DNA of 56,233 bases from Candidatus Latescibacterota bacterium (GCA_042572165.1 JBHPFF010000003.1:1-56233); one strand, 5' to 3'. Positions 95 to 24,290 are shown, counted from the first letter of the stretch. Notes: generated by a model from the letters alone, not told the origin. Numbers and translations: made by a program.

Positions 95-145
95 TTTGCC
101 GAGATATTGTCTTGAATTGAACGATTGCGTTGCTATTCTGTTTAA
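95..145 (+). mobile_element. IS1380-family transposase C-terminal stub
   Basis: Translates FAEILS*IERLRCYSV*; closely similar to the stub at 17717-17770 (FAEILSRIERLRCCAC*). Confidence 0.7.
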
Positions 146-201
146 CTACACCGTTATTGGATTGATTCAATGGATATGTATCTATAAAATGTGATATTTC
201 A

Positions 202-346
202 CTGTTTACCAAGAATATACTTAGCAAATTTTAACGATTAGCATGCATAAAACACTTGCAAAAGAATTTGGAAGAAGTAATATTCGTTTATCAACAAGAT
301 TGCGGGGGATTTTGACTGCTCATAAATTTGATAAGGAGAATTCCGG
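202..346 (+). mobile_element. Degraded IS1380-family right end (transposase tail + IRR)
   Basis: Aligns by eye with 11731-11827 and the reverse complement of 16053-16200; terminal TCATAAATTTGATAAGGAGAATTCCGG at 320-346. Confidence 0.65.
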
Positions 347-627
347 GTATATAGGACAAATTCTACTATACCTTAGATGTGCGGGAGAGCTTGCATCAAA
401 TGACACTGGTGCGGTATTATCTATCCTTATGAAGTGATGTTGCATTATATCTTGAATAGTAGAATGGACTGATATATAACAATTTAGGTGATATTGTGTC
501 TGCCAAGGTTTTTCATGCCAAAGCGGTTGAAAGATTTATTTGAGTTGACTTCAATAAGTTTAGACTACATATTTTATTAGTATTCTATTATAAAATAACA
601 ACATAATTTATAAATTGAGGTATTAAT

Positions 628-1038
628 ATGGCATTCTTACAATGGGATGACAGTTTGAGTGTGAATATTAAAGAGATTGATAATCAACATGCTAATTTGA
701 TTGAAATGGCAAATAATCTCCACAACAGCTTAAAAGCAGGTCAAGGAAATAACATTTTGAGGCCGTTATTAAATTCTCTTGTTGAATATGCAATAACTCA
801 CTTTGCAACTGAAGAAAAGTGGATGAAAAAGTATAATTACCCTGAATTAATACAGCACAAACAGGAGCATCAAACATTTATTTCAGAAATTAAGAATTTT
901 ATAAATAAATATAAAGAAAGGACACCCTTGCTGGCTCGAGAAATACTATTATATCTTGGTAGTTGGTACAGAAAACATATCATTGAAAATGACAAAATGT
1001 TTGGAAAGTTTTTAGAAAAAAATAAAATAAATTTATAA
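628..1038 (+). CDS. Bacteriohemerythrin
   Basis: WDDSLSV..IDNQH, HFATEE, HKQEH, HIIEND di-iron ligand pattern; GAGG SD. Confidence 0.93.
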   Translation: MAFLQWDDSLSVNIKEIDNQHANLIEMANNLHNSLKAGQGNNILRPLLNSLVEYAITHFATEEKWMKKYNYPELIQHKQEHQTFISEIKNFINKYKERTPLLAREILLYLGSWYRKHIIENDKMFGKFLEKNKINL

Positions 1039-1184
1039 TTTGCAGTAATCGTCTTACCTAATAATTGGTTTATACTACTCATCTTAATTTATTTTTATTT
1101 GACTTGCCATATTATGGATGTGTATAGTCTTTTATTTTCGAGTTTATAAATGAGCTTATTTTTTTAATTAAGGATGAGTCTATT

Positions 1185-1535
1185 ATGGTACTTAGTAAAG
1201 AATTCACCCATTGTCCAAAATGTGAGACTGTTTGGAACAGGAGAATTGATTTTCTTTCTGATACTTCAACCGCAATTGTTGCTTATAATCCAGATTTTGA
1301 ATATTTAAACCAAGGCACCTTCGTTTTTAAGCATGATACTTGCGATTCAAACATTGAACTTCAGGTAATCAATTTTAATGACCTATATAATGGGCAAATT
1401 TTCACAGAGAGAAAAACAGGAACAAAAAACTGTCCTGAGTACTGTCTTAATTCATCCGAATTACGTCCTTGCCCTGAAGAATGTGAGTGTGCTTATGTTA
1501 GGGAAATAATGCAGACTCTAATACCAGTTTATTGA
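1185..1535 (+). CDS. Cys-rich hypothetical protein (putative metal-binding)
   Basis: CPKC, HDTC, CPEYC, CPEECEC motifs; SD-like AAGGATGAG. Confidence 0.7.
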   Translation: MVLSKEFTHCPKCETVWNRRIDFLSDTSTAIVAYNPDFEYLNQGTFVFKHDTCDSNIELQVINFNDLYNGQIFTERKTGTKNCPEYCLNSSELRPCPEECECAYVREIMQTLIPVY

Positions 1536-2275
1536 GTATTTAGGAATTCTTGTCAAAATTGAAGTATAACCATGATATATGTTTTTAATCTATTATTGCT
1601 TGATATATATGATCACGCTATTTCTCCGATATAACCATTCTTTCCAACAAACTGTACTCAATGTTGGATTACATCTCTGCCCTTAAACGCTCTCAGAATA
1701 CACGATAGAGATATTCATGACTATGTTTGTGATGTTATTCGAGCTATATTCTTACGCCCAATTGGAAACAAGGTAAAAACCGCTAAAATGTTAATTAGAA
1801 AACAGCATTTTCATCATCAAATTTTTCTTACCCCTATCCATAATACCTTTTTTTATTTTTTAGCTCTCGAAACCACCGTTTTGCCAGTATGTTTTCACCT
1901 CTGTTTTAAGTTCTGAATGCAACCTATTCCACCTTTTATGTATGGATTTCACCATACGAAGCACATTTTATTATTATAGTGTCTGACATTAATTACCTCT
2001 ATTACTTAATATTTTAAAAAAATCAAAATATATTTTTAACAGGCTCTGAGTTTATAGTTGTTTACAAAATATTCTCACAAAAATATATCTGTGATGTTTA
2101 ATAATAAGCAAATCAAGGAAACAGTTACATTTTCGTTTCAATCCATAGAATAAATGAGTATACTGAATGGGAAGCAGTTGAGCAATTTCCCGCAAATCAT
2201 TTATTTACTTGAGAAATAGGGAAGTCGCATATTCTGCTGTAATTAGATATCGCTTTGACCATAGGAAGGTGAGCC

Positions 2276-3016
2276 ATGAATCGACTGAATTGGCAAATGT
2301 TGATTGGGGTAGCGCTGCTAATTCTTTCAATCATTCTTTATGCCGCACACTATTTCATTTTTCACGATCTGCACCACATCTTCATTTACATGGTTGGTGA
2401 CATCGCCTTCGTACCGATTGAGGTACTCCTGGTAACCTTAATTTTGCATCGTATACTGAGTTATAGGGAGAAGCAGGTGCTTCTGAAAAAGCTTAATATG
2501 GTGATTGGGGCATTTTATAATGAGACCGGAACGGAACTCCTGGGAATGTTGACACCCTTTCTGGTGGATGCCGAGCAGGTTACTCCTGCACTCAGGTTTA
2601 ACACCACCTGGAAAGATGCCGATTTTAATCGCGCCCAGAGCACTTTCACCTACGAAACCTGCTGGATGAACAGCAAGAGACAGAACATGGATGATCTAAA
2701 GACATTTTTAGAATCACATAAAACGTTTCTCCTTCGTCTTTTGGAAAATCCTAACCTGCTCGAACACGATTCTTTCACCGATTTGCTCTGGGCAGTGTTC
2801 CATCTTGCCGACGAGCTTGTACACCGTGAACGGCTGACCGACCTCACCAACGAGGACCTTGAACACCTTTCAGGCGACATGAAACGGGCTTATATCTTTC
2901 TTGTTTCCGAGTGGCTGAAATACATGAACCACATCCGTCTTGAATACCCCTACCTTTATTCAATAGCGGTGCGCACTAATCCGTTTGATCCCTCCGCTCG
3001 GGTGGAGATAGCCTGA
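2276..3016 (+). CDS. Hypothetical membrane protein (2 N-terminal TM helices)
   Basis: 246-aa ORF, SD AGGAAGGTGA, two hydrophobic segments then a soluble helical domain. Confidence 0.8.
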   Translation: MNRLNWQMLIGVALLILSIILYAAHYFIFHDLHHIFIYMVGDIAFVPIEVLLVTLILHRILSYREKQVLLKKLNMVIGAFYNETGTELLGMLTPFLVDAEQVTPALRFNTTWKDADFNRAQSTFTYETCWMNSKRQNMDDLKTFLESHKTFLLRLLENPNLLEHDSFTDLLWAVFHLADELVHRERLTDLTNEDLEHLSGDMKRAYIFLVSEWLKYMNHIRLEYPYLYSIAVRTNPFDPSARVEIA

Positions 3017-3525
3017 AGTTCCGCGCCGAAGAAATCGGAACTGAGGCGTAACCGTAACGTAGGTAATCATGGAGATCTTGTTTTCTCACCTTTAACTCAG
3101 TACTATGTGACCATCAAAAAAACGAATGAGAAGGAAGGATAGATGTCTGCCAAGTCAGACGAATTTACCGTCAACATATACAATATATATTATCATATTA
3201 TGTCATGAATATCATAGATGATTTTGCTCTTAAATAATCCCCGTTTAATCCCGCGAGCATATGACCACTAAATGAGTTGGCTCTAGCTGATTGTTAATAT
3301 AAATATTAGAAAAACTCCAGATTGCATGGGACGCGGGAATCGAACCCGCGTCTTATGCGCATACTGTTTAGCGCAAACACCATTCTGAAGCACGAAATAC
3401 AGCCCCAGAATCCACGATCTCCGTTGAGGGAATACCTATCATGGATAGTTGGTAAACTGGACAAAACAAGGCAGTATTCTGCAATCAGAATCTCATTTAT
3501 ATCCTTAGCAAGTAAAGCCAAAACC

Positions 3526-3663
3526 CCTAAGCATCAAGCTACCCCTGTTAATCTCTGGGGATACCGGAATGTTTATGTATGTCAGGGGCGGGTTTGATAT
3601 CAAGTGAGGCGCACAGAGCATTGAAATTTTATTTTTAGACCGTGCTAATGGAAAAAGTCAGTT
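3526..3663 (-). repeat. Dispersed repeat family R, copy 1 (A + core)
   Basis: Reverse complement aligns with 13702-13838, including the core GGTRTCCCCAGAGRTTAACRGGGGTAGCTTGATGCTTAGG. Confidence 0.85.
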
Positions 3664-3740
3664 AATCTCACAATAGATGAATCGTTGCGGGAGTGGATTG
3701 TGGAAAGGAAACCCAAACCTTACGGACATTTGATGTTTTG

Positions 3741-3814
3741 GTCAAACGGATAGGGATCAGCCGACAACATGAAGCGAAGTGGAATGATGTTCGGCCTGTA
3801 TCCCTTTGTTATAC
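3741..3814 (-). mobile_element. Integron attC site of the SDR cassette
   Basis: Minus strand GTATAAC-AAAGG-GAT(A)CAG(G)CCGA...TCGGCTGATCC-CTATCC-GTTTGAC, 74 bp, 8 bp after the SDR stop. Confidence 0.7.
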
Positions 3815-3822
3815 GTTAGTCT

Positions 3823-4584
3823 TTAATGAAGATAAGAAGCTCCATTAATATCAACAATGCCCCCAGTCAAATAATCGGAGACTTTGCTAGCTAAAAACAC
3901 AACCGTGTGTGCGATTTCTTCAGTTGTTGCAGTACGCCCCAGAGGACTTTGATGGCGAATAGAGTCCCCATCAGAACCAGATAGCAATGAATCTGTCATC
4001 TCTGTATGTACAAAAGATGGTGCTATCGCGTAAATAAAAATGTTGTATGGCGCGAGAGCTTGTGCCAACGATTGGCTGAGAGCGTTTAATCCAGCTTTGC
4101 TAGCCCCATAAGCAGGGGCATTTGGTTCACCTCGAAAGGCACCTCTCGATGATACATTGACAATTTTGCCACCACCATGCTCTATCATATGCTGAATAAT
4201 ACAAAAAGATAAATTGGCTGGTCCTGTTAAATTAGTACGTATAGTCCTTTCCCATGTATCTTGCCACTTTTCATATGTACAATCAGTTGTTTGGAGTTCC
4301 TCATATATCCCCGCATTATTAACCAGAATATTAATTCTGCCAATTTTACGAATTACAGTTGTGGTCATATCTTTAACAGCAGCAGGGTTGGATAGATCGG
4401 CCTGAACTAGTAAATGAGAGTCACCAGGAAGATCAGCTAAGGTTTGCTCAGCAAGCCGATGATTCTTGTGGTAATGAACTACCACTTGTGCACGTAATCT
4501 TGCAAATTGCAGGGCAATTGCTCGTCCAATTCCGCGCGAACTACCTGTTACAAATACAACCATATTCGTAAAATCAAAGTCCAC
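3823..4584 (-). CDS. Short-chain dehydrogenase/reductase (FabG-like), gene cassette
   Basis: TGSSRGIG, NNAG, YGASK motifs; SD AAGGAGG + GTG. Confidence 0.93.
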   Translation of the reverse strand: MDFDFTNMVVFVTGSSRGIGRAIALQFARLRAQVVVHYHKNHRLAEQTLADLPGDSHLLVQADLSNPAAVKDMTTTVIRKIGRINILVNNAGIYEELQTTDCTYEKWQDTWERTIRTNLTGPANLSFCIIQHMIEHGGGKIVNVSSRGAFRGEPNAPAYGASKAGLNALSQSLAQALAPYNIFIYAIAPSFVHTEMTDSLLSGSDGDSIRHQSPLGRTATTEEIAHTVVFLASKVSDYLTGGIVDINGASYLH

Positions 4585-4645
4585 GTTATCCTCCTTCCGT
4601 AATGCTATTAAGCCATAATGTGTTTAAGAAAATGAGTCTTTAACT

Positions 4646-4724
4646 GTATAACACCGCGGTTCACCTGCCGTCACTATCAATATAGCACATAACTAAGGCA
4701 GTCAGGTGCAATCGCTTGTTAGAC
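4646..4724 (-). mobile_element. Integron attC site
   Basis: Minus strand GTCTAAC-AAGCG-ATT(G)CACCTG(A)C...GCAGGTGAACC-GCGGT-GTTATAC, 79 bp, with R/L boxes and two extrahelical bases. Confidence 0.85.
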
Positions 4725-4772
4725 ATAAAATAATTTTATCCCTTTGCTTCCTGATTAACACTATGTGGACTA

Positions 4773-4967
4773 TTATTTTTTCGAGTAAATAATATATTCG
4801 ACAATTAATAAAAACAATGGAAAAGCAATGCTTAATAAAATCTGAGTATCCAATCCAATAACACTCTCTCCTTTTATCATATTTAACGACCTAAATATTA
4901 GAAATATTATGATTCCTAGCGTCATGTTTTGAAGTGTCCCGAAAATCCAAAAATTTTTTGTGTTCAC
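4773..4967 (-). CDS. Small 2-TM hypothetical protein, gene cassette
   Basis: SD AAGGAG 7 nt before GTG at 4967 (track ORF starts at 4994); two hydrophobic helices; lies between GTTAGAT and attC. Confidence 0.65.
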   Translation of the reverse strand: MNTKNFWIFGTLQNMTLGIIIFLIFRSLNMIKGESVIGLDTQILLSIAFPLFLLIVEYIIYSKK

Positions 4968-4999
4968 GATTAATCTCCTTATGTATTCAAACACTTAGT

Positions 5000-5220: not shown

Positions 5221-6363
5221 TCAGGATTTGTGGTCAACGCTCTTCTGCAATACCCGCAGGAAATTGTCGCCCCAAAACTTCTTTATCTCTTCCTCGGTCA
5301 AGCCGCGAACCAGCATGGCGCGCGTGAGAAGCACGAGCTGCGACACATCGGGCACTATCGGAGGATCTGAGAAACCGTCATAATCTGAGCCAAAGCCCAC
5401 CGTATCGATACCAACCAGGTCCGCCACATACAAAATATGATCCACCACGCGGTCGATGGTGGCTTTCTCCGGATCGTCGTCGATGTACCCGGGGAGAACT
5501 ACGATGCCCATGACGCCGCCTCGTTCGGCGAGAGCCTTGATCTGATCGTCCGTTAAACACCGATATTGATGGCAGAGAGAAAAGACAGCCGTGTGGCTCA
5601 TAATCGGCGGCCTCGTGGTGTGTTCGATGACATCAAAGAAGGCCTTGTCGTTGGAGTGGGAAAGATCGGTGATGATACCCATCTCATTTTCCGTCTTCAG
5701 CACCTCCATGCCGAAGGGAGTCAGGCCGACAGCGTTTTTGCGCTGCGCCTCCCGGTCTGCAAGCGTGCAGGCACCGGTGACACTCCGGGTGCCCTGCAGG
5801 AAGGTCGGGTCGCTCCCCCCCTCTCCGTGGGTGATGTGCACCGAGCGCACCCCGAGGCGATACAACAGCCGGAGGATATTCACATTCCCGTTGAGCCATC
5901 TTGCAGGGCCTTCAATTTCCATTATAATACCGACCTTGCCGGTCTTTCCGGCGCGAACCGCATCCTGTGATGAAAGAACCAGCATGAGGTCCTCGGGATG
6001 CGTATCAATCTGCTCCAGGATGAATTCGGTAATAGTCCAGAGGTCGGTGACCGCACTGTCCTCCACGAGAAAAAGCCCGACGTATTGCTGTCCACCTTCC
6101 GTCATCCGGGGTATGTCCGAATGGTAGGATGTATCTCGCTTCATCCAGCTCTTTGGATCCTCTTTACGGGCAAATCTTCTCACCGATGTATCCTGGTGGC
6201 CATCAATGATGATGCATTTTCGGTGAACGTCCCAGGCCTGCTCCATGGTGATCCCGCTTTTTGCAGCCCTTTCCTTCGCAAATGCGGGTGCCACCCCTGA
6301 TGAAATGATTGCGGCAATTCCCGCTGTCGCTGTTTCCTGCATGAATGTTCGCCGAGTTTTCAT
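5221..6363 (-). CDS. Membrane dipeptidase (peptidase M19) with Tat signal
   Basis: TRRTFM Tat motif; DGHQD, IEG, DLSH, SH, GSDYDG motifs. Confidence 0.9.
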   Translation of the reverse strand: MKTRRTFMQETATAGIAAIISSGVAPAFAKERAAKSGITMEQAWDVHRKCIIIDGHQDTSVRRFARKEDPKSWMKRDTSYHSDIPRMTEGGQQYVGLFLVEDSAVTDLWTITEFILEQIDTHPEDLMLVLSSQDAVRAGKTGKVGIIMEIEGPARWLNGNVNILRLLYRLGVRSVHITHGEGGSDPTFLQGTRSVTGACTLADREAQRKNAVGLTPFGMEVLKTENEMGIITDLSHSNDKAFFDVIEHTTRPPIMSHTAVFSLCHQYRCLTDDQIKALAERGGVMGIVVLPGYIDDDPEKATIDRVVDHILYVADLVGIDTVGFGSDYDGFSDPPIVPDVSQLVLLTRAMLVRGLTEEEIKKFWGDNFLRVLQKSVDHKS

Positions 6364-6396
6364 GTTTCCTCCCGCTGTGACAGAACAGTATATGAA

Positions 6397-6423
6397 CCGA
6401 TATTCCCCATATCAAAATCATGA
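6397..6423 (-). mobile_element. IS1380-family right inverted repeat stub
   Basis: CCGATATTCCCCATATCAAAATCATGA, 34 bp upstream of the dipeptidase start. Confidence 0.75.
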
Positions 6424-6451
6424 AAGATTATGTTTATGTCCCATTTTCCAG

Positions 6452-6529
6452 TTATTTCACCAACACCATCTTCCTCGTCTCACTAAATCCATTTGCTTTC
6501 AAAGTGAGGAAGTAAAAACCAGTTGGTAT
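6452..6529 (-). pseudogene. Orphan 3' end of a T9SS type-A/FlgD-like C-terminal sorting domain
   Basis: IPTGFYFLTLKANGFSETRKMVLVK*, no start or N-terminal body. Confidence 0.75.
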
Positions 6530-6631
6530 ATTTGCTGTATAATGCTAAATGTTGTTTAATACATACACACTAGTTATATATATGTTGTATGTATAATGTT
6601 ACTTTAACCCGCCTAAATGTACTACTGTTAT

Positions 6632-7012
6632 TCAAGTTCTTTCGAGTATGTCGGCTATTATATTGTTCACAATATCGGGTTTGAAGCCGAATTTCATGGC
6701 AACAAGCGAGCACAATTGAAATTCTTCTTCATATATTTTCCTATCGATCATCATCATACCAATTAGCGCTGCAAGTTCTTCGATTCGGTCTTTTTCGTTT
6801 TGGGGAACTTCAATCTTCGGCATCTCGGAGTTGTTAACAATATCATCTAACTCATTCCCAGAAATACCCCACTCTTCAGCCACCTCCATCAATAACGCTT
6901 TTTCGTTTATATTGAAGTCATTATCTACTGCAGCGAGTGATGATAGAATTTTGATAAATGACCTCTTCTGTTCATCTGATAGATTTTTGTTTTTATTTTC
7001 GGATTTTGGCAT
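6632..7012 (-). CDS. TerB-family (tellurite-resistance fold) protein
   Basis: Duplicated LAAVDNDFNINE / MMMIDRKIYEEE motifs; SD AAAGGA. Confidence 0.8.
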   Translation of the reverse strand: MPKSENKNKNLSDEQKRSFIKILSSLAAVDNDFNINEKALLMEVAEEWGISGNELDDIVNNSEMPKIEVPQNEKDRIEELAALIGMMMIDRKIYEEEFQLCSLVAMKFGFKPDIVNNIIADILERT

Positions 7013-7077
7013 ATGTGCTTCCTTTCAATATTATTATTTGAAGTAAAGTAGCTGCAATCTAAATCATAACTAGTGAT

Positions 7078-7215
7078 TGTATGTCGTCAAAGCATTTTGG
7101 ACACTTACAGTTAAAAATTAAGGTGTAGATTTAGTAAGAAGCAACTGCTTTTTTTAAACCTCCTTTCCCTTGGTTATATGCTCGCCTCATCTTCATCGTT
7201 ATGAACATCAACTTC
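7078..7215 (-). mobile_element. IS3-like right end stub with transposase tail
   Basis: Terminus TGTATGTCGTCAAAGCATTTTGGACAC; minus strand TMKMRRAYNQGKGGLKK; homologous to 22503 and 24114. Confidence 0.7.
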
Positions 7216-7373
7216 ACCTTGACTTTTCCTATTATTCGGATAAATTAATGGTAGGATGTTTAGAGGTTTTTACGATTTACATTACGCCCTCAACAACGGT
7301 CTGCTGACCAACACAAGAAGTGGTCCAAATAGTAGGGCAGGTCATTAAGCCGAATGGCCTGACAAAGTCTCTA

Positions 7374-10620: not shown

Positions 10621-10791
10621 GCTCATAAAATAATAGTACAAATGGCTGTGATAAACACCTCTGAGGGCACGACCTCACCTTGAAGCATATCCCTTACCTC
10701 TATACACATGATAAACTTCCCTCATAAGGCGTGCAGTTTTCTCTTTACATACACTGAAAATCACGTTATATCTACATTGTGAGGGAACTGA

Positions 10792-10899
10792 AACTACTCT
10801 GTAACATGGAACGCAAAGGGAATGCCGAGCGGGCTGTATTTCTGCACTCTTAATGCGAATGGCTTCACTGAGACGAGAAAGATGGTGTTGGTGAAGTAA
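10792..10899 (+). pseudogene. Orphan 3' end of a T9SS type-A/FlgD-like C-terminal sorting domain
   Basis: NYSVTWNAKGMPSGLYFCTLNANGFTETRKMVLVK*. Confidence 0.8.
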
Positions 10900-10903: not shown

Positions 10904-10941
10904 TTTAACTGTAAGTGTCCAGAATGTTTTGACGACATACA
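10904..10941 (+). mobile_element. IS3-like right end stub
   Basis: TTTAACTGTAAGTGTCCAGAATGTTTTGACGACATACA, reverse complement of 7078-7115 with 2 mismatches. Confidence 0.7.
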
Positions 10942-11618: not shown

Positions 11619-11671
11619 ACTCTGGAAGCAAGTGGATTTGTGAGACGAGGAAGATGGTGTTGGTAAAATAA
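11619..11671 (+). pseudogene. Orphan frameshifted 3' end of a C-terminal sorting domain
   Basis: TLEASGF/ETRKMVLVK*; duplicate of 6452-6505. Confidence 0.7.
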
Positions 11672-11699
11672 CTGCAAAATGGTACATAAACATAATCTT

Positions 11700-11827
11700 T
11701 CATGAATTTGATATGGGGAATGTCGGTAAAAATACTTGCAAAAAGAATTTGGAAGCGGTAAGATTTGTATATCGGCAAGATAATGGAATATTATGACTAA
11801 TCATGAATTTGATATGGGGATTATCGT
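11700..11827 (+). mobile_element. Two tandem IS1380-family right ends
   Basis: IRR copies at 11700-11726 (..GATATGGGGAATGTCGG) and 11801-11827; 11731-11827 is homologous to 251-346. Confidence 0.75.
11736..11764 (+). promoter_or_regulatory. Putative outward-facing sigma70 promoter inside the IS1380 end
   Basis: TTGCAA-17bp-TAAGAT; equivalents at 256-283 (+) and 16143-16116 (-). Confidence 0.5.
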
Positions 11828-13439: not shown

Positions 13440-13532
13440 TCTTAAGTGGTAAATGGAGAGATTTAAAAGGTTTGTATAAGGATAGGTGAAAACAGTTGAT
13501 TCAGTTCAATGTATACCATATTTTCTAATTTG

Positions 13533-13561
13533 AAGTGTCCAAAATGTTCTGAAGATGTACA
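13533..13561 (+). mobile_element. IS3-like terminal repeat stub
   Basis: AAGTGTCCAAAATGTTCTGAAGATGTACA matches the family terminus. Confidence 0.6.
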
Positions 13562-13977: not shown

Positions 13978-13979
13978 TA

Positions 13980-14828
13980 TTACCTCATTATCTCAGAAAG
14001 CTGCTCGGCATCATGAAATGCCACGGCTACCATCTCACGAACATTTTCTTCATTCATGCTGTATTTCTTGACACATATTCCCACGAGTTTCTCCATGGCA
14101 TCCTCATCATCACCTTTCAAATAAGATACAAGTTCAACTGCAGGTTCGATTTCCACATCTGTATCCTGACTATGGTGTCCGTAAATCGCCCTGATCAAAT
14201 ATTCGGGCAAATCCCAGTTTTCAGCTATCAGCGCTCCTGCAAATGAATGATCATATCCAAGTACATCTTTCTCTATTTCACTTAAATCGACACTTTTATC
14301 TATGTTCCAACGCTCAAAAATCATTTTGTATTCTTTCGGCCTGACCACTACAAGGATTGGCAAAGCCATATCCAGGAGTAGTCCAGTTGTAAAAGACTCT
14401 ACCTGTGTAGCAGGATGAAGCTGGTTGGCAAGAACACGTGCGAGACTGGCTCGCTGAGCGGAGATAAGCCAGAACTGCCTCATATCGAAAAACGGCATCT
14501 CAACCTTGGGAAGCGTGCTGTTAACCGCCTGAGAAAGTACAATTGTTTCCAGACGGGAACGTCCGAGAAGAGTAACAGCATGATGAACATTGCTCACCCT
14601 AGTCGTCAGGCCGAATGCAGCTGAATTAACCGTTTTAAGCACCTTAACATGTAAACCCGGATCCCCCTCGAGCTGTTTTGCCACCTCTTTCATCGAGAAA
14701 TCGGGATTTCTCAGGGCAGTCAGTATACTCATCACTGCAGAAGGGAAACTTGGCAGTTCATAATTGCCGAGTATTTCTTCGAGCTCAGCCTTCGGATTTT
14801 TTTTACGTTTACGGAAAAAACTTAGCAT
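13980..14828 (-). CDS. Stand-alone HDOD domain protein
   Basis: LPSFP, DPGLHVKVLKTVNSAAFG, GLLLDM, E..VLGYDH, WDLP, HH; probable ATG at 14828 with GAGG. Confidence 0.9.
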   Translation of the reverse strand: MLSFFRKRKKNPKAELEEILGNYELPSFPSAVMSILTALRNPDFSMKEVAKQLEGDPGLHVKVLKTVNSAAFGLTTRVSNVHHAVTLLGRSRLETIVLSQAVNSTLPKVEMPFFDMRQFWLISAQRASLARVLANQLHPATQVESFTTGLLLDMALPILVVVRPKEYKMIFERWNIDKSVDLSEIEKDVLGYDHSFAGALIAENWDLPEYLIRAIYGHHSQDTDVEIEPAVELVSYLKGDDEDAMEKLVGICVKKYSMNEENVREMVAVAFHDAEQLSEIMR

Positions 14829-14838
14829 ATGATCTGCC

Positions 14839-15864
14839 TCAATCGGCTCTACGGGCAATCTTGTTACTGAAAATAGAAAGAAGCCCTCCGAGCATCATAT
14901 ATCCGGAAATTACCTCCAGCATAGCTACAATCTGTCCTCCGAGTGATGCGGGTTGTACATCGCCGTATCCGAGCGTTGTTAATGTTACAACACTATAATA
15001 GAAAGGAGAGAGCCAGGTTGGATGATTTCCGTAATCAATCTCAACAAGTGAATAAAGCCATCCAAAGAAACATGCAAGTAATCCAATCCAGATACACCAC
15101 CTGAGCATGCTTCTCCCGCAGTCGCTTGTCAGCCACCAGAGATAATAAAGAGCACTGGTTACACGGTTTGCCTCACGGAACTCCTTGATAAAATTCTGAT
15201 CCTGTATAAACCGTCTGAGCCTGTAAGCTCCTGCAAAATTGACATTTCTAACATCAACGCCAATCCAGTTAGCTTTCTCAAAACCATGAACAGCCCGTAA
15301 TCGTGCCTCACGCATGTCAGCATTACTGAATGATGCGCCAGAAACATTGCTCAAAGATAAATCTGTAGATCGAAGATCAGCATTTGTCAGGTCGGCACCG
15401 GACAAATTTGTTTCACGAATTCTGGTGTCACGCATAAAGGCGTTGCGGAGATCAGCACCCTCAAGGTCAGCAAGGCTGAGTGTGGCGCCCTCTAAATTGC
15501 ATCGGAAAATATTTGCCTGCTTCAGATTGGCCATACCAAGTCCGACATGTTTTGCATTAGCCTCTTCGAGTACGGCCTTTGACAGATCAGCCCCTGTCAA
15601 TTCTGCACCTTCCAAGGTTGCTCTCATAAGCGTGACTTTTTGGAGATTTGACTTAAATAATTTTGCTCCGGTAAGGTTGGTTTCGGTTAAATCTGCCCCT
15701 GAAATATCTATCATTGATAAATCCATTCCGCTGAGATCCCTGCCTGCCAGGGAAATGCCGCTCAGGTCAAGGGGTTTTTGAGTGACAGATTTACGTCCCT
15801 CTTTAATATCCTTGAGCAGATTGTATACTTCATCACTTCGGTGAGGGAGTAAATTGTTTTCCAT
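14839..15864 (-). CDS. Pentapeptide-repeat protein fused to a 2-TM potassium channel pore
   Basis: Long A(D/N)LXX repeat tract; TLTTLGYGD filter between two TM helices (start 15864 or 15885). Confidence 0.88.
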   Translation of the reverse strand: MENNLLPHRSDEVYNLLKDIKEGRKSVTQKPLDLSGISLAGRDLSGMDLSMIDISGADLTETNLTGAKLFKSNLQKVTLMRATLEGAELTGADLSKAVLEEANAKHVGLGMANLKQANIFRCNLEGATLSLADLEGADLRNAFMRDTRIRETNLSGADLTNADLRSTDLSLSNVSGASFSNADMREARLRAVHGFEKANWIGVDVRNVNFAGAYRLRRFIQDQNFIKEFREANRVTSALYYLWWLTSDCGRSMLRWCIWIGLLACFFGWLYSLVEIDYGNHPTWLSPFYYSVVTLTTLGYGDVQPASLGGQIVAMLEVISGYMMLGGLLSIFSNKIARRAD

Positions 15865-16052
15865 TCCATTAACTCTTATAAACAATATGATAAGATTTTT
15901 TACTGAATTTTGACTGCGAAAGATAATCTGAAATGTATTTAATACATATAAACTAACAATTCATATAAGTTTTTTCAGCTTACTATCACCGCTTTTTTCA
16001 GGTTTACAGTGAGTTCCATTAATCACTTTACATGTGTGTGTTTTTATTTTAC

Positions 16053-16242
16053 CCTGGATTTCCCAAATTAAATTCATGAGTAGCTAAAATTCTCAACAAT
16101 CTTATTGATAAATCAATATTACCCCTTCCAAGTTCTTTTACAAGTATTTTTTGCATCGCAATCGTTCTATCCGAGACAATATCTTGGCAAACAACCTTTC
16201 GTCAATTGCAACCTCAGCCATCTGAAACGTCATGAATCTGCT
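16053..16242 (-). mobile_element. IS1380-family right end with transposase C-terminus
   Basis: SRFMTFQMAEVAIDERLFAKILSRIERLRCKKYL* followed by a degenerate IRR at 16053-16079. Confidence 0.85.
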
Positions 16243-16273
16243 AAGTCTGACTATCCTACAATTCAATTCCGCT

Positions 16274-16521: not shown

Positions 16522-16531
16522 TCTGTACAAG

Positions 16532-17452: not shown

Positions 17453-17516
17453 TAATCTACCTCCTTGAGGAGCTTGTGAAAAGGAATTAACATCCCTCAC
17501 CTTAAAAAGTATAAAA

Positions 17517-17870
17517 CCTACATTCCCCATATCAAAATCATGAGGGCTAATTACTTCGAATTATTCATTCAACAAGTTCAAATTATTATATTTGTACAAT
17601 TGAAACAAGCTTTTTCCTTCGAAAGAGTCGAATAAGTTGGGATACATGTAATGGATTGCTCTGAAGATCACCACTTAGAGACAGCTATCCCCAGTTTTAA
17701 TCCAAAAGACTCTATTTTAACAGGCACAGCATCGCAATCGTTCTATCCGAGACAATATCTCGGCAAATAACCTTTTGTCTATCGCAACCACAGCCATCTG
17801 AAGCGTGATATATCTGCTGTGCCTGACAACCTTCGTTCCAATTTTGATGAGCTTTACGAGCAGACTGGTG
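17517..17870 (-). mobile_element. IS1380-family right end with transposase C-terminus
   Basis: LLVKLIKIGTKVVRHSRYITLQMAVVAIDKRLFAEILSRIERLR (stop 17717); IRR CCTACATTCCCCATATCAAAATCATGA at 17517-17543. Confidence 0.88.
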
Positions 17871-17879
17871 TTGATGTAA

Positions 17880-18101
17880 ATGTTTAAATGGGATAAAGAA
17901 GAATTAGCAAAATATAATGTAATTGGTTCCGGATGGGATGAAGAAGACTTCGTAGAACGTAATCCAAACAAGGTTTTTGATATCACTGGAATGTTTTTTC
18001 AACTATATAATCCAGTGGTAGGATTCCAAAATGTATCTGAAGGATTTAAAAATTCAAAGCCAATGCCGCTTGATACAGATTGGGAAAATGCAGAGGAATA
18101 A
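17880..18101 (+). pseudogene. Probable C-terminal fragment of an unknown gene
   Basis: 73 protein-like codons, no SD, abuts the IS1380 stub. Confidence 0.35.
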
Positions 18102-18446: not shown

Positions 18447-19313
18447 ATGAAGCGAGTTGTTTTTCTGGTAAGTATTGTTTTCTTAATGGTGATATCGTAT
18501 ATAGCGATTGCGCAGAACCTTGATGGAAGTCCCTATACTCCGGGGAAAGATGCCAATATTGATATGTTTATAGGCAGTTGGAAAGACTCTATGCCCAGGC
18601 ATTCTCATGGTTCCCTTGTGGAAAGAGATATACTTACCAAAGGTAATGCATTAAATCCGACGCAAAAAGGAGCTGTCCTGGAATATGTCAACCGTTTCGT
18701 ATACGCAACACTTGATACACATGCAATGACGACTCCAACAACTCTCGATGGGGAACAGGAAATATTTTACATTATTTCCGGCAAAGGCACTATTAGTGCT
18801 GGTAAAGAAACAGCGGATCTTTATAGCGGTATAGCCGTGCTTATGCCGGCGCATCTTGAATTCACCATGAAAAATACCGGTGATGTACCTTTAACAATGT
18901 ACCTTGTCTCTGAACCTTATCCGGAAGGCTTTCGCCTGAACAAAGAAATGCTTATTGTTGATGAAAACACTCGACCTATTGGTAATTCACAGGCTCACTG
19001 GGTTGGGATTACAAAAGGTCTTTTTGGCACGAATGACGGTCTTGGAACCCTTCAGTCCATCCTCACCTGCTCATTCAGCCCCATGACGATGTTTCATCCC
19101 CACAGTCATGCGAAGGGGTGTGAGGAAGTATGGACTGCAGTTAACGGTGATATTTATGCCTTTCTTGGTAAGCAGATTCGCCTTCAACCACCCGGAACAG
19201 CATATATGATACCGCCGGACGGCAAAACTCCGCATGCAAACTTTAATGTATCTGATAACCTGTTAAAAATGTTTTATTTTGCCCGTTATAGTGATCGACC
19301 GGTAAGGAAATAA
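18447..19313 (+). CDS. Secreted bicupin protein
   Basis: Signal peptide; EQEIFYIISGKG and HPHSH..EE..PH cupin motifs; SD AAGGAGG. Confidence 0.88.
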   Translation: MKRVVFLVSIVFLMVISYIAIAQNLDGSPYTPGKDANIDMFIGSWKDSMPRHSHGSLVERDILTKGNALNPTQKGAVLEYVNRFVYATLDTHAMTTPTTLDGEQEIFYIISGKGTISAGKETADLYSGIAVLMPAHLEFTMKNTGDVPLTMYLVSEPYPEGFRLNKEMLIVDENTRPIGNSQAHWVGITKGLFGTNDGLGTLQSILTCSFSPMTMFHPHSHAKGCEEVWTAVNGDIYAFLGKQIRLQPPGTAYMIPPDGKTPHANFNVSDNLLKMFYFARYSDRPVRK

Positions 19314-19493
19314 TAAGTTTTTTAAAACTTCAGTTGTAATCGTCTGGGGAAATGGATGGTAAGAAAATAAACAGTATTTATCATATATTTTGGATGAAAG
19401 TACTTCAGGAGACTTTACCGTGGTTACATCTCTTTGTGAAAGATTCAATATATCTTTGGACGGTAGGATGCCGCTCTTTAGTATATAAGATTA

Positions 19494-21281
19494 CTATCCT
19501 AGAGAATCGAACGTAATGTCTTCTAATTTGTCGCCGTCGAAATCGCATATGTTTGCCGCTATTTTAACTTCCTCATTACGATCATTCAGTTTTTCTACCT
19601 CGAGAATAAATATATTTTCACCTTTGTCGATTGTGACGAACAACGAGGGCGTCGGATCATACCGGAATGATTCTGTATTATACCTGCGTTCTCTTCCCAT
19701 AAAATACACTCGAAAACGACCACCGCGCATACCCACAAGAAGTTGCCCCATCAACCCTAGTTGCTGCCCATGGACTGTGCAAGCAAGATAGAAGAAGGAA
19801 TTTTTCTCGACGTTATTACTCCCCGGAATGGCGTAGAGGAGAGCATCTTTATAACGCATTCTGTCAAGTGATGGATCATTGTCAATAACATCGTCGCCAT
19901 TTAAAAACTGCCATGGTTTCTCTTCAATATAGTCACCATTTTTCGGATTCAAAGATTTAATATCATTAATTGGCGATGTAAATGGTCCCGCCAGCAACCA
20001 GTTACGAATACCGCGAGCGACATATTTGTTTGAAGCGCGCATGTAATTGTATTTGATGGATTTTACCGATGGTCCGGAAATGAGTATATGCTCGGGACGC
20101 CATTCTCCCAGTTTCTTCATGTGGCACCAGCGCAGAAGATCAAAATCCAGGGGATTGAATCCCATCGCCATATTGGAGATAGCTTCAGCAGCGACAATAT
20201 CACCTCCAGCAATCACAACATTGTGATTAAATCCAATACCCTTTTGGCCGCTGTGATGACTCATGGATGCCCAGAAGCCCTCGGCGACTCCATAATCCGG
20301 ATGTATAGCGCAAGCCAGATCAGCGATACCTCGCGCGAGATTCAAATCGCTCCCTTTATGAATTGGGCTTTTACTAATATCACCGGTATAAGGGACGGAA
20401 TGGACACAACCAATCAAATTTTTCATGAACAACGTTGTCCCTACATTGCCATGGGTCTTCATCACCGGACAGGTAATAAGAATATCACGGTCAAGGATGG
20501 TTTTCGGAAGGTATATCCCCTTTCTCCTGGTCGGTTCTTGGTCGGAGGTTGCGTCCGGGTCACCGGGAGGAACGAACTGCAACGCACCTTGACCGGAATT
20601 ATAAGGATCATAATCGGTCACATACACTGGTTCATCCTCGTTGAGATCCACGATGTCTACGGTTGTGCCGTTTTTACCATTCAGTTCCTCGGCGATACCA
20701 ACGTATGAAAGTCGCCCAAATCCTTCAAATGCGTAATGCCAGCCATCAATGAATTCTTCCTTTTTAAATGATCCCCCTGAGGAATACCACCCGGACGGCC
20801 CTTCGGCTATGGTAATCTTTTTCGGTCCAATTCGTTCAATAAGATATTCGATTAACGCTTTTATTACCCTCAAATCAGTCACCAGAGCAAGGGCGTCAGT
20901 GTGCCTTTCGAAGTGTTCACGGAGTGCACGGTCTCCATTGAATGCAATTTCTGGCAATCCTGCAATGCGAACGATGTTAGTTTTTATTACTACCCATGAG
21001 TCCGGACTCACAATTTTTTGTAGACTTCTCGGTGAATAATCTCGATCAAGCGCAAGCCACACTATATCCCGTATCTGTTGTGTAGTGAGTGGAACATGGA
21101 GCGGCATCGGTTCCGCCAGTTCGGGATCATTCGATGCAGCGATCGCAACCACTGAATGGTATTTTTTCATTTCGGCTGCAATCGCGTTTCCTGTTTCTTG
21201 AGATGTATTTAAGGGCAAATCCATACCAGTCATGAGAGAACCTGTAATGGTTGAATTTTTCAAAAAATCTCTTCGTTTCAT
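19494..21281 (-). CDS. Tat-exported DUF362 domain protein with C-terminal extension
   Basis: KRRDFLK; VVIKTN, IAEG, CPVMKTH, MKNLIG motifs. Confidence 0.82.
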   Translation of the reverse strand: MKRRDFLKNSTITGSLMTGMDLPLNTSQETGNAIAAEMKKYHSVVAIAASNDPELAEPMPLHVPLTTQQIRDIVWLALDRDYSPRSLQKIVSPDSWVVIKTNIVRIAGLPEIAFNGDRALREHFERHTDALALVTDLRVIKALIEYLIERIGPKKITIAEGPSGWYSSGGSFKKEEFIDGWHYAFEGFGRLSYVGIAEELNGKNGTTVDIVDLNEDEPVYVTDYDPYNSGQGALQFVPPGDPDATSDQEPTRRKGIYLPKTILDRDILITCPVMKTHGNVGTTLFMKNLIGCVHSVPYTGDISKSPIHKGSDLNLARGIADLACAIHPDYGVAEGFWASMSHHSGQKGIGFNHNVVIAGGDIVAAEAISNMAMGFNPLDFDLLRWCHMKKLGEWRPEHILISGPSVKSIKYNYMRASNKYVARGIRNWLLAGPFTSPINDIKSLNPKNGDYIEEKPWQFLNGDDVIDNDPSLDRMRYKDALLYAIPGSNNVEKNSFFYLACTVHGQQLGLMGQLLVGMRGGRFRVYFMGRERRYNTESFRYDPTPSLFVTIDKGENIFILEVEKLNDRNEEVKIAANICDFDGDKLEDITFDSLG

Positions 21282-21417
21282 AACAAACCTTCCTATGATT
21301 ATATAGATTAACTGTATTTGTACTCGTTGCAATCGTTAAAATTATTAAAGCCTATCCATACTGTGCTCTGAAGTGTCGCGTCCTGAGGAGAACCAAAGTT
21401 CTCCTAAAACATAATAT

Positions 21418-21444
21418 TCGGAATTCCCCATATCAAAACCATGA
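21418..21444 (-). mobile_element. IS1380-family right inverted repeat stub
   Basis: TCGGAATTCCCCATATCAAAACCATGA. Confidence 0.7.
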
Positions 21445-21523
21445 GGATTAATAACTTTAAACCCTTATTATGTCATTTAAAAAATGAATTTTGTGTTCTC
21501 TACGTAAAATATCTACCCCTCGC

Positions 21524-22399
21524 TTACATAGGCGATAAATAGAGAAAATAGATCGGCTCTTCGGACCCATTGATATTCGAATGGGGCGTAAACCCGGATG
21601 GTGGAACCTTGTAGGCTACACCGGGACCCTGCCAACGTATTTCCTTCCCGAGAAACGCCAGGTTCTTCCCTTTAAGGACATGCCATATCTCTTCCACACC
21701 TTCGCCGTGACTGTGCGGATGTCCGATGGTCATGGGATCGTAAACGAGGAGGTTGACCTTGAGGACCGAAAGACCGTCACTGGGCACAAAGATTCTCTTG
21801 CCTTTGTGGACCCAGTGCATACTGAGAAAGCCCTGCTTACGATATGGCATGGTTGTTTCATCCTTAACCACTATGCTCTTTGACGATTTAAAGCCCTCGG
21901 GAATCGGGATATTGATGATGTACATAACAAGGAGGTCGTCCCCGGTATTTTTTATGGTGAATTCAACCTCTTCGGGGACGAGCATAAAAATACCATAGCG
22001 GAGATCGGCTGTCTTGCCGCCGGAGGTGATAGTACCGGTTCCTGAAACAAAGTAGAACACCTCCTGCTCACCCTTAAGCGTTGTCGGCGCGGTCGATACA
22101 TGAGGATCCATGGTTGCGCGAGAAAAGCGGTTTATCTTGGTGAGAACTGCGCCATCTCTGAGTGGCCTCAGCTCATCATCTCCCTCAAGCTTGGTGAGGA
22201 TTGCACGTTCCGTAATGTTGCCGTGAGAGTTGAACGGAAGCGAGTCCCTGTAGTCACCCATGAACATGTTGATGTCCGGGTCTTTTGCCGGATCGAGAGG
22301 CTTCCCATCGAGGCTGGTCTGGGCATTGACCATCCCGGTCTGCACAACCAACATGAAAACACAGAAAATAAATATCATACGGCGCATCTGATACCTCAT
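21524..22399 (-). CDS. Secreted bicupin protein (paralog of 18447-19313)
   Basis: Signal peptide; EQEVFYFVSGTG, HPHSHGEGVEE, TPH. Confidence 0.88.
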   Translation of the reverse strand: MRYQMRRMIFIFCVFMLVVQTGMVNAQTSLDGKPLDPAKDPDINMFMGDYRDSLPFNSHGNITERAILTKLEGDDELRPLRDGAVLTKINRFSRATMDPHVSTAPTTLKGEQEVFYFVSGTGTITSGGKTADLRYGIFMLVPEEVEFTIKNTGDDLLVMYIINIPIPEGFKSSKSIVVKDETTMPYRKQGFLSMHWVHKGKRIFVPSDGLSVLKVNLLVYDPMTIGHPHSHGEGVEEIWHVLKGKNLAFLGKEIRWQGPGVAYKVPPSGFTPHSNINGSEEPIYFLYLSPM

Positions 22400-22502
22400 G
22401 GTATTGACATTGAATATAACTTCTTATTAATGAAGTACTTATAATTCTTTACCTGTCCCCATTTTTTACCACTTCCAGAGTCAGTCTTTGCGCATCAATA
22501 TC

Positions 22503-22640
22503 TGTAAGACTTCAGAACATTCTGGACATATATAGCTAAAATTAAGCTGTAGTTTTCAGAAATTGCAACTGTTTTTTCAAGCCCCCTTTTCCCAGGTTGT
22601 AAGCTCTCCTCGCTTTCTGTGATTCATGCTTGATCATCTT
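22503..22640 (-). mobile_element. IS3-like right end stub with transposase tail
   Basis: MIKHESQKARRAYNLGKGGLKKQLQFLKTTA* then terminus TGTAAGACTTCAGAACATTCTGGACA. Confidence 0.7.
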
Positions 22641-22697
22641 ATACACTAATAGAAAATGGTCAACCTATTAAAATAATTTCAGAACATATTTAAATGT

Positions 22698-24023
22698 CTA
22701 TTTACTTTTGATATCATAGGTAAACAGCTTATCCACATGACGAATATATAACCGTCCACCGCACACAACCGGATGCGCCCAGTACATTCCTTCTCCCCCC
22801 TCAGGCACCTTGAATGAACTTACTTCATCATATTTTTCGTATGTGGCTTTGACCAACTTCATGGTTTCTTTTTCCTCCAGACAATATAACATATTATCTG
22901 CATAAACCAGCGAGCCTTTCCCTCGTGATTTCCACATCTGTTCTCCGGTCATGAAATCCAGGCAGAACCATCCATTCGCTTCATGTCCCGCCCCGTAAAG
23001 ATATCCTTCATGCAAAATGACTCCGCCATGATGGTTATCCATGAGGTCCGATTCCCAAACCGTTTCCGGAACGATTTTATTCTGTGAAGCTTTTAGTTTG
23101 ATCAGTTCGCTTCCTGTACCGTAACCGCTCGAGACGAATACATAACCATTATGAAATATGGCATCCGTGGCATTGACCGGTTCCCTGTTCTCAACCTTCG
23201 AGATCCATAGCAGCTTTCCCGTTTTACTGTCAATCCCGTAAACGCTGCTCGAAGACATGTTAATGATCTGCTGATAGCCGCCGAAATCTGCGAAAATCGG
23301 AGAGCTGTATCCTGCAGTTCCTGGAATATCACTGCATGTCCATATAAGTTTTCCATCCTTTTTATTCAGGCAGACCATAAATCCTTTCTTTCCCCCTGGG
23401 CTGCAGTACAGACGGTCTCCTTCGATAAGAACGGATTCGGAAAAACCCCAATCATTTAATTCCGCATCGAAAACATCACGAAGGTTGAGATACCACATCT
23501 TTTCCCCGGTTTTGTAATCGAAAGCTGTCAGCTGAATAAATTCATCAAGATGATACACAATACCGTCATCGTATGTCGGTGTGCTTCGGGAGCCGATTCT
23601 TGATTTGCCAAATCTCTTGGTTGTTTCGCTGGGAAGGCCGTTGGGTTTCTTCCAGAGCAGTGTGCCATCCATGTCATATGCAAACACGTAGGTTTGTTTT
23701 CCTATCCTGCCAGCGGTAAAGATATATCCTTTTGCGATGGAGACGGTGCTGAATCCCCTGCCCAGGCCCGAGACTGTCCATAGCAGTTCGGGGCCATTTT
23801 CCGGCCATTCCTTTAAAAGCCCGGTCTCGGCCGACTTGTTGTTACGGTACATGCCGTGAAAACATGCCCACTCGCTTTTTTCCTGCGCTGATGTTGTTCT
23901 GGAAAAAAGACAGACGAGAAGGCAAGAGATGAAACCGGTATACAGAAGGCTTTTCCAGTTTCCGATACGTGTATTACATGTACTTATGTGTCGAGAATGG
24001 AGCATACTTTTAATACTTCTCAC
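22698..24023 (-). CDS. PQQ-like (BamB-type) beta-propeller protein
   Basis: GLLKEWPENGPELLW, repeated D.KTG..W blades, WAHPVV.GGRLYIR; SD GAGGAGG. Confidence 0.9.
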   Translation of the reverse strand: MRSIKSMLHSRHISTCNTRIGNWKSLLYTGFISCLLVCLFSRTTSAQEKSEWACFHGMYRNNKSAETGLLKEWPENGPELLWTVSGLGRGFSTVSIAKGYIFTAGRIGKQTYVFAYDMDGTLLWKKPNGLPSETTKRFGKSRIGSRSTPTYDDGIVYHLDEFIQLTAFDYKTGEKMWYLNLRDVFDAELNDWGFSESVLIEGDRLYCSPGGKKGFMVCLNKKDGKLIWTCSDIPGTAGYSSPIFADFGGYQQIINMSSSSVYGIDSKTGKLLWISKVENREPVNATDAIFHNGYVFVSSGYGTGSELIKLKASQNKIVPETVWESDLMDNHHGGVILHEGYLYGAGHEANGWFCLDFMTGEQMWKSRGKGSLVYADNMLYCLEEKETMKLVKATYEKYDEVSSFKVPEGGEGMYWAHPVVCGGRLYIRHVDKLFTYDIKSK

Positions 24024-24113
24024 TTAATCCTCCTCATCACTAAAAACTTTTTTAAAATTTTAATTATATGATTATAGTAGTACTTTTAAAATGTCAACTT
24101 ATTCTGTAAAGAC

Positions 24114-24290
24114 TGTACGTCTTCAGAACAAGTTGGACACGTACAGTTAAAAATTAAGGCGTAGTTTTCAGGAATTGCAACTGTTTTTTCAAGCTTCCTT
24201 TCCAGAGGTTATATGCTCTCCTCATCTTCAATGTTTCATGTTTGATCATATCTCCCTGCGACAGACGCTCACTGTTTCGGTATATCTGGA
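24114..24290 (-). mobile_element. IS3-like right end stub with transposase tail
   Basis: MIKHETLKMRRAYNLWKGSLKKQLQFLKTTP* then terminus TGTACGTCTTCAGAACAAGTTGGACAC. Confidence 0.72.

Follow-up and report, generated by a model that had tools for sequence, protein, structure and literature searches.

Why should so many genes in one part of a bacterial contig be preceded by a fragment of an insertion sequence (IS) whose tip points at the gene? The question is raised by a stretch of 56,233 nucleotides from Candidatus Latescibacterota bacterium (GCA_042572165.1 JBHPFF010000003.1:1-56233; the window), which is the entire contig C3 of a 3.08-Mb metagenome-assembled genome (MAG; G000, 231 contigs, 68% complete). 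An earlier note on this DNA had described seven copies of a 27-bp terminus (here type 1) and five of a second terminus, TGTA...TGGACA (type 2), and had proposed that the island was built by repeated one-ended capture of genes, or that the stubs were kept as portable promoters. Our analysis suggests another history, to which we assign a probability of roughly 60%: the repeats are the eroded ends of two ISs, and those of type 1 have been kept facing gene starts by selection that filtered the insertions, and not by oriented insertion.

The evidence that carries this reading is the orientation of the termini relative to genes. Each terminus was scored by which end of the next gene, start or stop, its outer tip faces, with 2,452 gene calls obtained genome-wide from an open reading frame (ORF) and codon-usage caller made for this analysis. 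A genome-wide search with the 22-nt core of the type 1 terminus found 101 ends of the right inverted repeat (IRR) type and 15 of the left (IRL) type. After dropping the duplicated half of contig C16, 98 IRR-type termini were counted; 5 that fall within gene calls and 2 located at contig ends were set aside, leaving 91. A gene start is faced by 87 of these (null 0.53, p 1.7e-19), including all 71 copies with at most 3 mismatches, and each of the four stop-facing copies is a 4-mismatch match. Type 2, taken through the same pipeline as a control, faces starts in 25 of 45 cases (p 0.77). The check suggested in the earlier note, orientation against chance, thus separates the two types, with type 1 non-random genome-wide and type 2 random, and the three gene-facing type 2 copies in the window therefore carry no signal. 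The oriented type 1 loci are spread over 56 contigs and precede 84 genes in 70 families, or about 3.5% of called genes, at a median tip-to-start distance of about 63 nt. On their inner side, 58 neighbours are co-directional and 25 divergent, which is the genome base rate; IRL-type ends face stops seven times and starts three times, and in two-ended copies the IRR faces a start in 8/8. In the relatives G002, G007 and G012, the first long ORF runs in the same direction as the right end in 17 of 18 cases (20 right ends were fetched, one lacking a terminus and one an ORF).

Could this bias come from the gene caller, through ORFs extended to an ATG inside the terminus, or from redundant contigs? 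The gene calls are home-made, several ORFs do begin at an ATG in ATGGGGAAT, and the MAG contains a palindromic contig and a few duplicated loci. Yet the same pipeline leaves type 2 at chance, the count is set by strand and not by start position, the flanks show ribosome-binding sites and signal-peptide starts, and the independent tally in the three relatives agrees; with half of C16 already dropped, removal of identical flanks shifts 87/91 to 86/90. An artefact is the least probable of the explanations we have weighed. The palindromic contig C16 is itself a near-perfect inverted self-duplication, in which a match at x recurs near 35365-x, and is probably an assembly artefact.

Within the window, the 27-mer of the earlier note matches four sites with at most 3 mismatches (6397, 11700, 11801 and 17517, against 0 in 100 shuffles), and the 22-nt core with at most 4 mismatches finds all seven type 1 sites it had listed (320, 6402, 11700, 11801, 16058, 17522 and 21423), those at 320 and 16058 with 4 mismatches each. 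The first, a class A2 right-end stub on the plus strand (88..346), consists of a transposase C-terminus trace of 15 aa (89-133), a 3' tail and the terminus (320-346), and its tip at 346 faces the hemerythrin gene (628-1038) from 282 nt. On the minus strand, a terminus of interior class X (6397..6531) has its tip at 6397, 34 nt from the M19 dipeptidase start at 6363. The gene for an EAL-HDOD protein (start 11926) is preceded by two plus-strand stubs in tandem, a class X terminus (11619..11726) with its tip at 11726, 200 nt upstream, and a second stub with an A2-like tail (11741..11827) whose tip at 11827 lies 99 nt upstream. A minus-strand right-end stub (16053..16272) with a transposase C-terminal remnant (16153-16263) faces the pentapeptide/ion-channel start at 15885 from its tip at 16053, 168 nt away, and its terminus is decayed, with TTAATT in place of TTGATA. 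The class A1 right-end stub on the minus strand at 17517..17867 likewise carries a remnant (17726-17866), and its tip at 17517 faces a DHH-like gene from 62 nt, counted to the start used for the 307-aa protein. Finally, a terminus stub of about 40 bp (21418..21457, minus strand) has its tip at 21418, 140 nt upstream of the DUF362 gene as measured to MKRRDFL. Together with the type 2 stubs described below, these account for the nine transcription units said to have a stub upstream pointing in, with tips 34-282 nt from the starts.

All type 1 and type 2 termini in the window are intergenic, and they are confined to its first 24.9 kb, in agreement with the statement that none follows the tRNAs. 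Pfam bears out the gene labels we had been given, with the exception of the DHH label, for which no match was found at E <= 0.001.

What kind of element left these stubs? By homology to longer copies elsewhere in the genome, the type 1 termini belong to an IS1380-family element of about 1.63 kb, as the earlier note had guessed. The stub at 17514-17867 is 86% identical, over 357 bp, to positions 1275-1629 of a near-full copy that lies where contig C1 ends; this copy scores 415.7 bits against PF13701, contains one TAA and is one of 22 PF13701 fragments genome-wide. Contig C43 holds a stop-free 368-aa N-terminal transposase ORF (NF033539, 278.4 bits, cut-off 180), and a copy in G012 reaches 315.5 bits against the same cut-off; a stop-free ORF of 411 aa occurs in G012. 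All-against-all ORF clustering combined with Pfam found no other multi-copy transposases in the genome, leaving IS1380 as the sole multi-copy transposase family; Pfam-less multi-copy ORF families were considered as transposases and rejected, as their members run antisense to real gene families. Terminal inverted repeats beginning with CC are a hallmark of IS1380 elements, and both type 1 repeats begin in this way: IRL is CCCGTATTCCCCATATAAAAC and IRR, read inward, is CCGACATTCCCCATATCAAAATCATGA. The C1 element is at least 1,629 bp long, its left end being CCCTATTCCCCATATAAAA and its right end finishing in ...TTTTGATATGGGGAATATCAG, and homology among copies stops sharply at the tips. The flank is TTAA-like (+2 T in 91%, +4 A in 72%, consensus nTtAaA), with a clean TTAA direct repeat in one of nine two-ended copies (C77) and TTAA-like, unequal flanks in the rest.

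The copies form an erosion series. Two-ended internal-deletion derivatives of 248-955 bp occur on C20, C77, C145, C32 (two), C43, C30, C93 and C16, comprising eight IRL-IRR pairs and one copy with IRR-type termini at both ends, and their junctions are of the microhomology type. Stub lengths grade without a break between 24 and more than 450 bp, and the stubs, ragged at their inner edges, adjoin other pieces of repeat to form a mosaic. The seven window copies are all one-ended and so lack the two terminal inverted repeats of a miniature inverted-repeat transposable element. In the window, the remnant at ORF 17717-17986(-) comprises the last 46 residues of the IS1380 model (PF13701 positions 389-434 of 435, E 5.6e-8, 31.9 bits, just below the 34.7 cut-off), and a weaker match covers 16138-16266(-) (E 0.018). 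With the type 2 ORF at 24154-24315(-), these confirm that several stubs retain transposase C-termini and are, for those copies at least, right ends. No other transposase pieces were found in the window beyond these C-terminal remnants and the trace at 89-133, and the terminus pattern search found no IRL-type end there. The window thus has neither left ends nor an intact transposase, but the absence of left ends does not extend to the genome, with its 15 IRL-type termini, nine two-ended copies and near-full copy at a contig end. BLAST with the C1 copy detects about 15 left ends and 12-15 right tips, so the C1-type subfamily is balanced in its ends, and the excess of right ends stems from the other interior classes. 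By eye, about 43 termini (classes A1 and A2) lead inward into the transposase 3' region; a further 40 or so (classes X, Y and Z) have just the last ~25 bp in common, and their assignment to the right side of the parent is putative.

The type 2 termini have a different source. All five sites (7078, 10941, 13561, 22503 and 24114) were recovered by an nhmmer profile (E 1e-8 to 6e-7), as the earlier note had listed them. The terminus is found in a relative, G004 (10 contigs, 96% complete), on an element of about 1.6 kb (e.g. C8:1434150-1435700) present in at least six copies that are identical over the ~700 bp aligned; three copies compared also over positions 1001-1551 show 3 single-base differences. 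This element has tips beginning TGTA, an OrfA (PF01527, 55.5 bits) and a 351-aa ORF with helix-turn-helix and rve domains (PF00665, 80.7; NF033516, 168.7 against a cut-off of 160), the gene pair and TG...CA-type ends of the IS3 family, although the 351-aa ORF scores higher on the IS481 model (202), below the cut-off of 224. The window stubs align to its last ~140 bp, and the C-terminus of its transposase matches ORF 24154-24315(-) with 51% identity over 41 aa. The G004 transposase reads toward the TGTA tip, and the window copies are therefore right ends. These alignments assign type 2 to the right end of an IS3-family element, one that remains live in G004. In G000, there are 42 right-end and 7 left-end pieces, one interior fragment and no intact copy, and stub lengths form a continuum as they do for type 1.

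Three of the type 2 stubs in the window face genes, all on the minus strand. The stub at 7078..7268 (tip 7078) faces the TerB-like start at 7012 from 66 nt; that at 22503..22639 (tip 22503) lies 104 nt from the cupin start at 22399; and that at 24114..24250, which carries the transposase C-terminal remnant, has its tip at 24114, 91 nt from the PQQ-propeller start at 24023. The remaining two tips face no nearby gene start. The plus-strand terminus at 10904..10941 (tip 10941) is joined to a class X piece (10735-10899), a junction that recurs on C130 and C21, and the outer side of the plus-strand stub at 13489..13561 (tip 13561) faces the 3' end of an HDOD gene (13980-14858, minus strand).

Did the genes come with the stubs, or did the stubs come to the genes? 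Serial capture would have an ISEcp1-like element take each accessory gene by one-ended transposition and leave its right end ahead of each. In its favour, the IS1380-family members ISEcp1 and ISPme1 are reported to mobilise 3'-adjacent DNA (PMC9330008), and in G020, a closed 4.54-Mb genome of another family, the DNA beyond the right tip is 100% identical for at least 4.2 kb at two IS copies. Orthologues tell otherwise for this window. The dipeptidase orthologue in G012 has no stub and reads TTAACA-N17-TATACT where the window has TTGATA (within the IS end), 17 nt and TATACT in the host flank (6387..6415, minus strand). Similarly, the stub-free DHH-like orthologue in G002 reads TTGACG-N17-TATACT, and the window reads TTGATA from the IS end, 16 nt and a host TATACT (17508..17535, minus strand). 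At these two orthologue-verified loci, the IS landed in the spacer of an old promoter, its TTGATA replacing the native -35 of the predicted promoter. Paralogues agree: the dipeptidase paralogue on C120 aligns in its 5' leader to 9 nt from the tip and has no terminus match, the cupin gene is preceded by type 2 in the window and by a type 1 stub in its paralogue on C156, and no gene-plus-stub junctions are common to paralogues. As orthologues lack the stubs, and paralogues lack them or have a different one, the stub came to the gene.

The capture model also sits poorly with the layout. The window contains no IRL, intact transposase or alternative right end framing any gene, and no ISEcp1/ISPme1-type transposition unit, which would comprise a complete IS, a captured segment, an alternative IRR-like end and a target duplication. 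The same stubs stand ahead of genes on many contigs, not in one array, and their ragged inner edges abut other repeats. Serial capture, as the earlier note had it, is thus largely refuted for this window, and we consider it hardly credible as an account of the stubs. Five further stub-capped genes gave no new pre-insertion sites (three without a match at E <= 1e-40, one with a 31% match, and one with a 55% homologue whose upstream region could not be aligned), and homologues of DUF362 and EAL-HDOD in relatives, tried as orthologues, proved to be paralogues (~60% and ~40% identity) and are uninformative. An integron-like cassette array, which the layout suggests, was dropped since the repeats are IS ends; intI and attC were not searched for.

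The identical G020 segments (G020:C1:1852-6082 and 620227-624457) extend past the right tips of two live IS1380 copies, differ by two one-base indels, and contain BFN-nuclease and BamD-like genes (by Pfam) and about 3 kb of further DNA; they could reflect ISEcp1-type 3' mobilisation, segmental duplication or an assembly repeat. Separately, on G002:C602, an rve-type transposase C-terminus lies just upstream of, and co-directional with, the orthologue of the window channel gene, so that a different IS occupies the equivalent place.

How might an IS end benefit the gene it faces? Host upstream regions are sigma-70-like (TTGACA, 147 sense against 63 antisense; TTGACn-N16-18-TAnnnT, 140 against 29); a Bacteroidetes-type promoter (TAnnTTTG) in the terminus was considered and rejected, as that motif shows no strand bias upstream of host genes (116 vs 110). 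The type 1 terminus places TTGATA 13 nt from the tip in 77 of 93 copies, and -10-like boxes near the tip are about twofold enriched over spacers 13-19. The left end of the C1 copy contains TTGATA-17-TATAAT (11 of 12 consensus positions), pointing through the element; left ends of deletion derivatives have similar -10 boxes by eye (TATTAT), and no terminator-like sites were found on either strand of the C1 copy. With a left-end promoter and no terminator, a complete or two-ended copy should transcribe outward over its right end. The suggestion that the stubs were kept as portable promoters is therefore plausible for type 1, in view of its orientation and the predicted hybrid promoters, and finds no counterpart in type 2, whose orientation is at chance.

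Transcription and selection are what we infer from these features, as follows. Type 1 would insert at TTAA-like, AT-rich sites, often in or beside promoters, and its left-end promoter would fire across the full length of the element, which has TTGATA at 13 nt from its right tip. A copy whose right end points toward the next start would keep or raise transcription of that gene, sometimes by replacing the native -35, and a copy whose right end points toward a gene tail would drive antisense or ectopic transcripts into that gene and be purged. Over time, gene-start-facing copies alone would survive, internal deletions would erode them from the transposase side, and the end product would be right-end stubs ahead of genes. 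The type 2 (IS3) end would have no such outward effect, and hence no orientation bias.

The rival that bears most directly on selection is oriented, promoter-targeted insertion, in which the transposase senses an asymmetric promoter feature (an RNA polymerase open complex or an extended motif) and selection is minor. Several observations accord with it: tips cluster 20-100 nt upstream of start codons, convergent spacers are depleted (2 type 1 termini vs 12.8 expected), two-ended copies are already oriented, TAnnnT boxes occur within 6 nt of the tip (counts at spacers 14-19 total 50 over 93 copies, about twice background), and the bias holds at all distances, with 25 starts against 0 stops at 100-500 nt. 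The flank, however, shows a short palindrome-like TTAA preference and no asymmetric motif further out, and one of four recent contig-end copies in G002 is wrongly oriented. Young insertions elsewhere provide a further comparison. The 22-nt terminus pattern occurs in 12 of 41 genomes (reversed control, 0), and G020 carries 60 matches, nearly all of one identical variant, with an intact 465-aa IS1380 transposase on the inner side in all three copies checked (428.5 bits). Among the first 16 of these by coordinate, just 8 point the same way as the first long ORF on their outer side; the remaining eight involve Lon_C (2), a TIG-domain ORF (3), an NHL ORF, an unnamed ORF and an ambiguous case, and collapsing shared flanks gives about 7 vs 5. 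Because young copies of this sister IS show no orientation rule, filtering over time is favoured, and we regard targeted, oriented insertion as unlikely.

Another possibility is that the terminal block of about 22 bp has been kept as a site for a transposase-derived DNA-binding protein, for example the product of the 368-aa ORF on C43, which would co-regulate the capped genes. The five interior classes share only their last ~25 bp and yet all face starts, TTTGATAT and AAT are the most invariant positions (96-99%), and the stop-free N-terminal transposase ORF is present. Against this, conservation of the terminus is confounded by the way matches were found, its mismatch spectrum looks neutral, DNA binding and expression of the truncated C43 ORF are putative, and a simple operator would need no orientation. 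A regulon assembled in this way strikes us as very improbable.

Several results weigh against the filtering of type 1 by selection on its promoter activity. The G020 comparison involves another subfamily (GTGATA, not TTGATA), rough ORF calls, a small sample and partly duplicated flanks. Right ends exceed left ends for the unbiased IS3 type as well (42 vs 7), which promoter selection cannot explain. A flank TAnnnT lies 16-18 nt from TTGATA in just 15 of 93 copies, compared with 8.7% in controls, and a looser -10 score is reached by 27 of 93 compared with 12.6%, so the hybrid promoter accounts for a minority of copies. Some tips lie 17-40 nt from the start codon, and RNA must then begin inside or upstream of stubs that have no left-end promoter; a search for sigma-70 promoters inside the stubs gave nothing consistent, with 2 predicted sites in the right 500 bp vs 1.2 in shuffles. 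Among sequencing runs, none of RNA was listed as containing the locus, and the DNA runs listed have word shares of 0.10 or less. The terminus mismatch spectrum rises to the cut-off (7, 18, 21, 27 and 20 copies for 0 to 4 mismatches), and the stubs thus show no sign of ongoing purifying selection. The gene calls, finally, are home-made and rest on a MAG that is incomplete and in many contigs.

A stronger version would treat the IS1380-type element as a mobile promoter cassette that lands in promoters, its right end becoming a working -35 or transcription source, so that the stubs would be domesticated promoter parts for ~3-4% of genes, mostly lineage-specific accessory ones. We hold this only tentatively and think it doubtful. 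If true, a sizeable share of accessory-genome promoters would be transposon-derived; should insertion itself turn out to be oriented and guided by promoters, a piggyBac-related transposase would have a new mode of targeting. That ISs activate a neighbouring gene is known one case at a time, mostly for resistance genes. Here, a near-absolute genome-wide rule recurs in three related genera and is missing in the young expansion of another family, a contrast that offers a natural before-and-after series for selection filtering transposon insertions. The system also permits a direct test of how much of a bacterial promoter set transposon ends can build, and it holds a warning for annotators, as such stubs would mark promoters and not captured cassettes.

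How does this compare with known systems? Strong outward promoters are described at the 3' end of ISEcp1 and ISPme1 (PMC9330008), and the likeness extends to the transposase family, a right end upstream of a co-directional gene, and transcription plausibly arising from the element. The differences are that the window holds eroded one-ended stubs alone, that orthologues show the IS coming to the gene, and that some 90 chromosomal loci in an uncultured lineage are involved as opposed to single plasmid resistance genes. In Bordetella pertussis, hybrid promoters are described at 6 IS481 copies, and outward transcripts meet same-orientation genes at 70 copies and opposite ones at 150 (PMC6161684), so that IS481, by the counts given in that part of the source, shows no sense bias. 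At two loci in the window, the IS end similarly provides a -35-like hexamer 16-17 nt from a host -10; by contrast, our type 1 copies are in the sense orientation in 87 of 91 cases, most are dead stubs, and a well-spaced -10 is found in a minority. A large survey describes, in the part concerned with IS1380, a modest excess between co-directional genes and no more (PMC9208149). Searches of the literature on IS1380 orientation, promoters, piggyBac/TTAA and hybrid promoters yielded no report of such an orientation rule for IS1380; we regard the genome-wide rule as a variant of already known outward-promoter effects of ISs. As to type 2, the G004 parent resembles the IS3 family in its OrfA, its second ORF and its TG-type tips, and differs in the higher IS481 score of that ORF; the window stubs match its last ~140 bp and its C-terminal 41 aa, and G000 is without an intact copy.

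The termini lie among many other repeats. BLAST of the window against the genome shows that nearly every spacer in 1-24,899 is built of dispersed repeats, in 5-45 copies at 70-90% identity, that end at 24899, with a single small exception past the tRNAs (40616-40672). An Rfam scan of 1-26000 at E <= 1 found nothing beyond the two tRNAs, and a closer scan of 3000-3900 merely a T-arm-like fragment. Unassigned mosaic repeat modules occupy 3227..3764. They include a tRNA-like 3' half (T-arm and acceptor strand; 3322-3371, minus strand, no ARAGORN call) within a dispersed module (3227-3354) of 6-7 copies, and elsewhere they occur joined to an IS3-type left end on one side and an IS1380-type right end on the other. 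The resulting chimera, in which an IS3-type left end is followed by the tRNA-like piece, module B and an IS1380-type right end, recurs with identical junctions in at least four copies (G000 C167:2494-3279, C75:4191-3520, C164 and C75:1085-494; window 3333-3749). Modules B and M3 were considered as diverged IS1380 transposase coding sequence and rejected, having no tblastn support.

The genes of the first 24.9 kb include a trio of cupin, DUF362 and cupin at 18447-22399. Beyond them, a non-coding repeat at 24250..24899 terminates at 24899 with an inverted repeat resembling that of IS1380, 70 nt 3' of tRNA-Arg. This repeat of about 650 bp exists in at least eight copies at 76-88% identity, also on C8, C31, C54, C105 and C1, and six contigs have it at 45-70 nt on the 3' side of a tRNA gene, each of a different identity (Arg-tct, Arg-cct, Met, Glu, Lys and Gly). 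One possibility is a non-autonomous element with tRNA flanks as its target. Within its window copy, at 24314-24353, the decamer ACACTTTTTT occurs in 3-4 tandem repeats.

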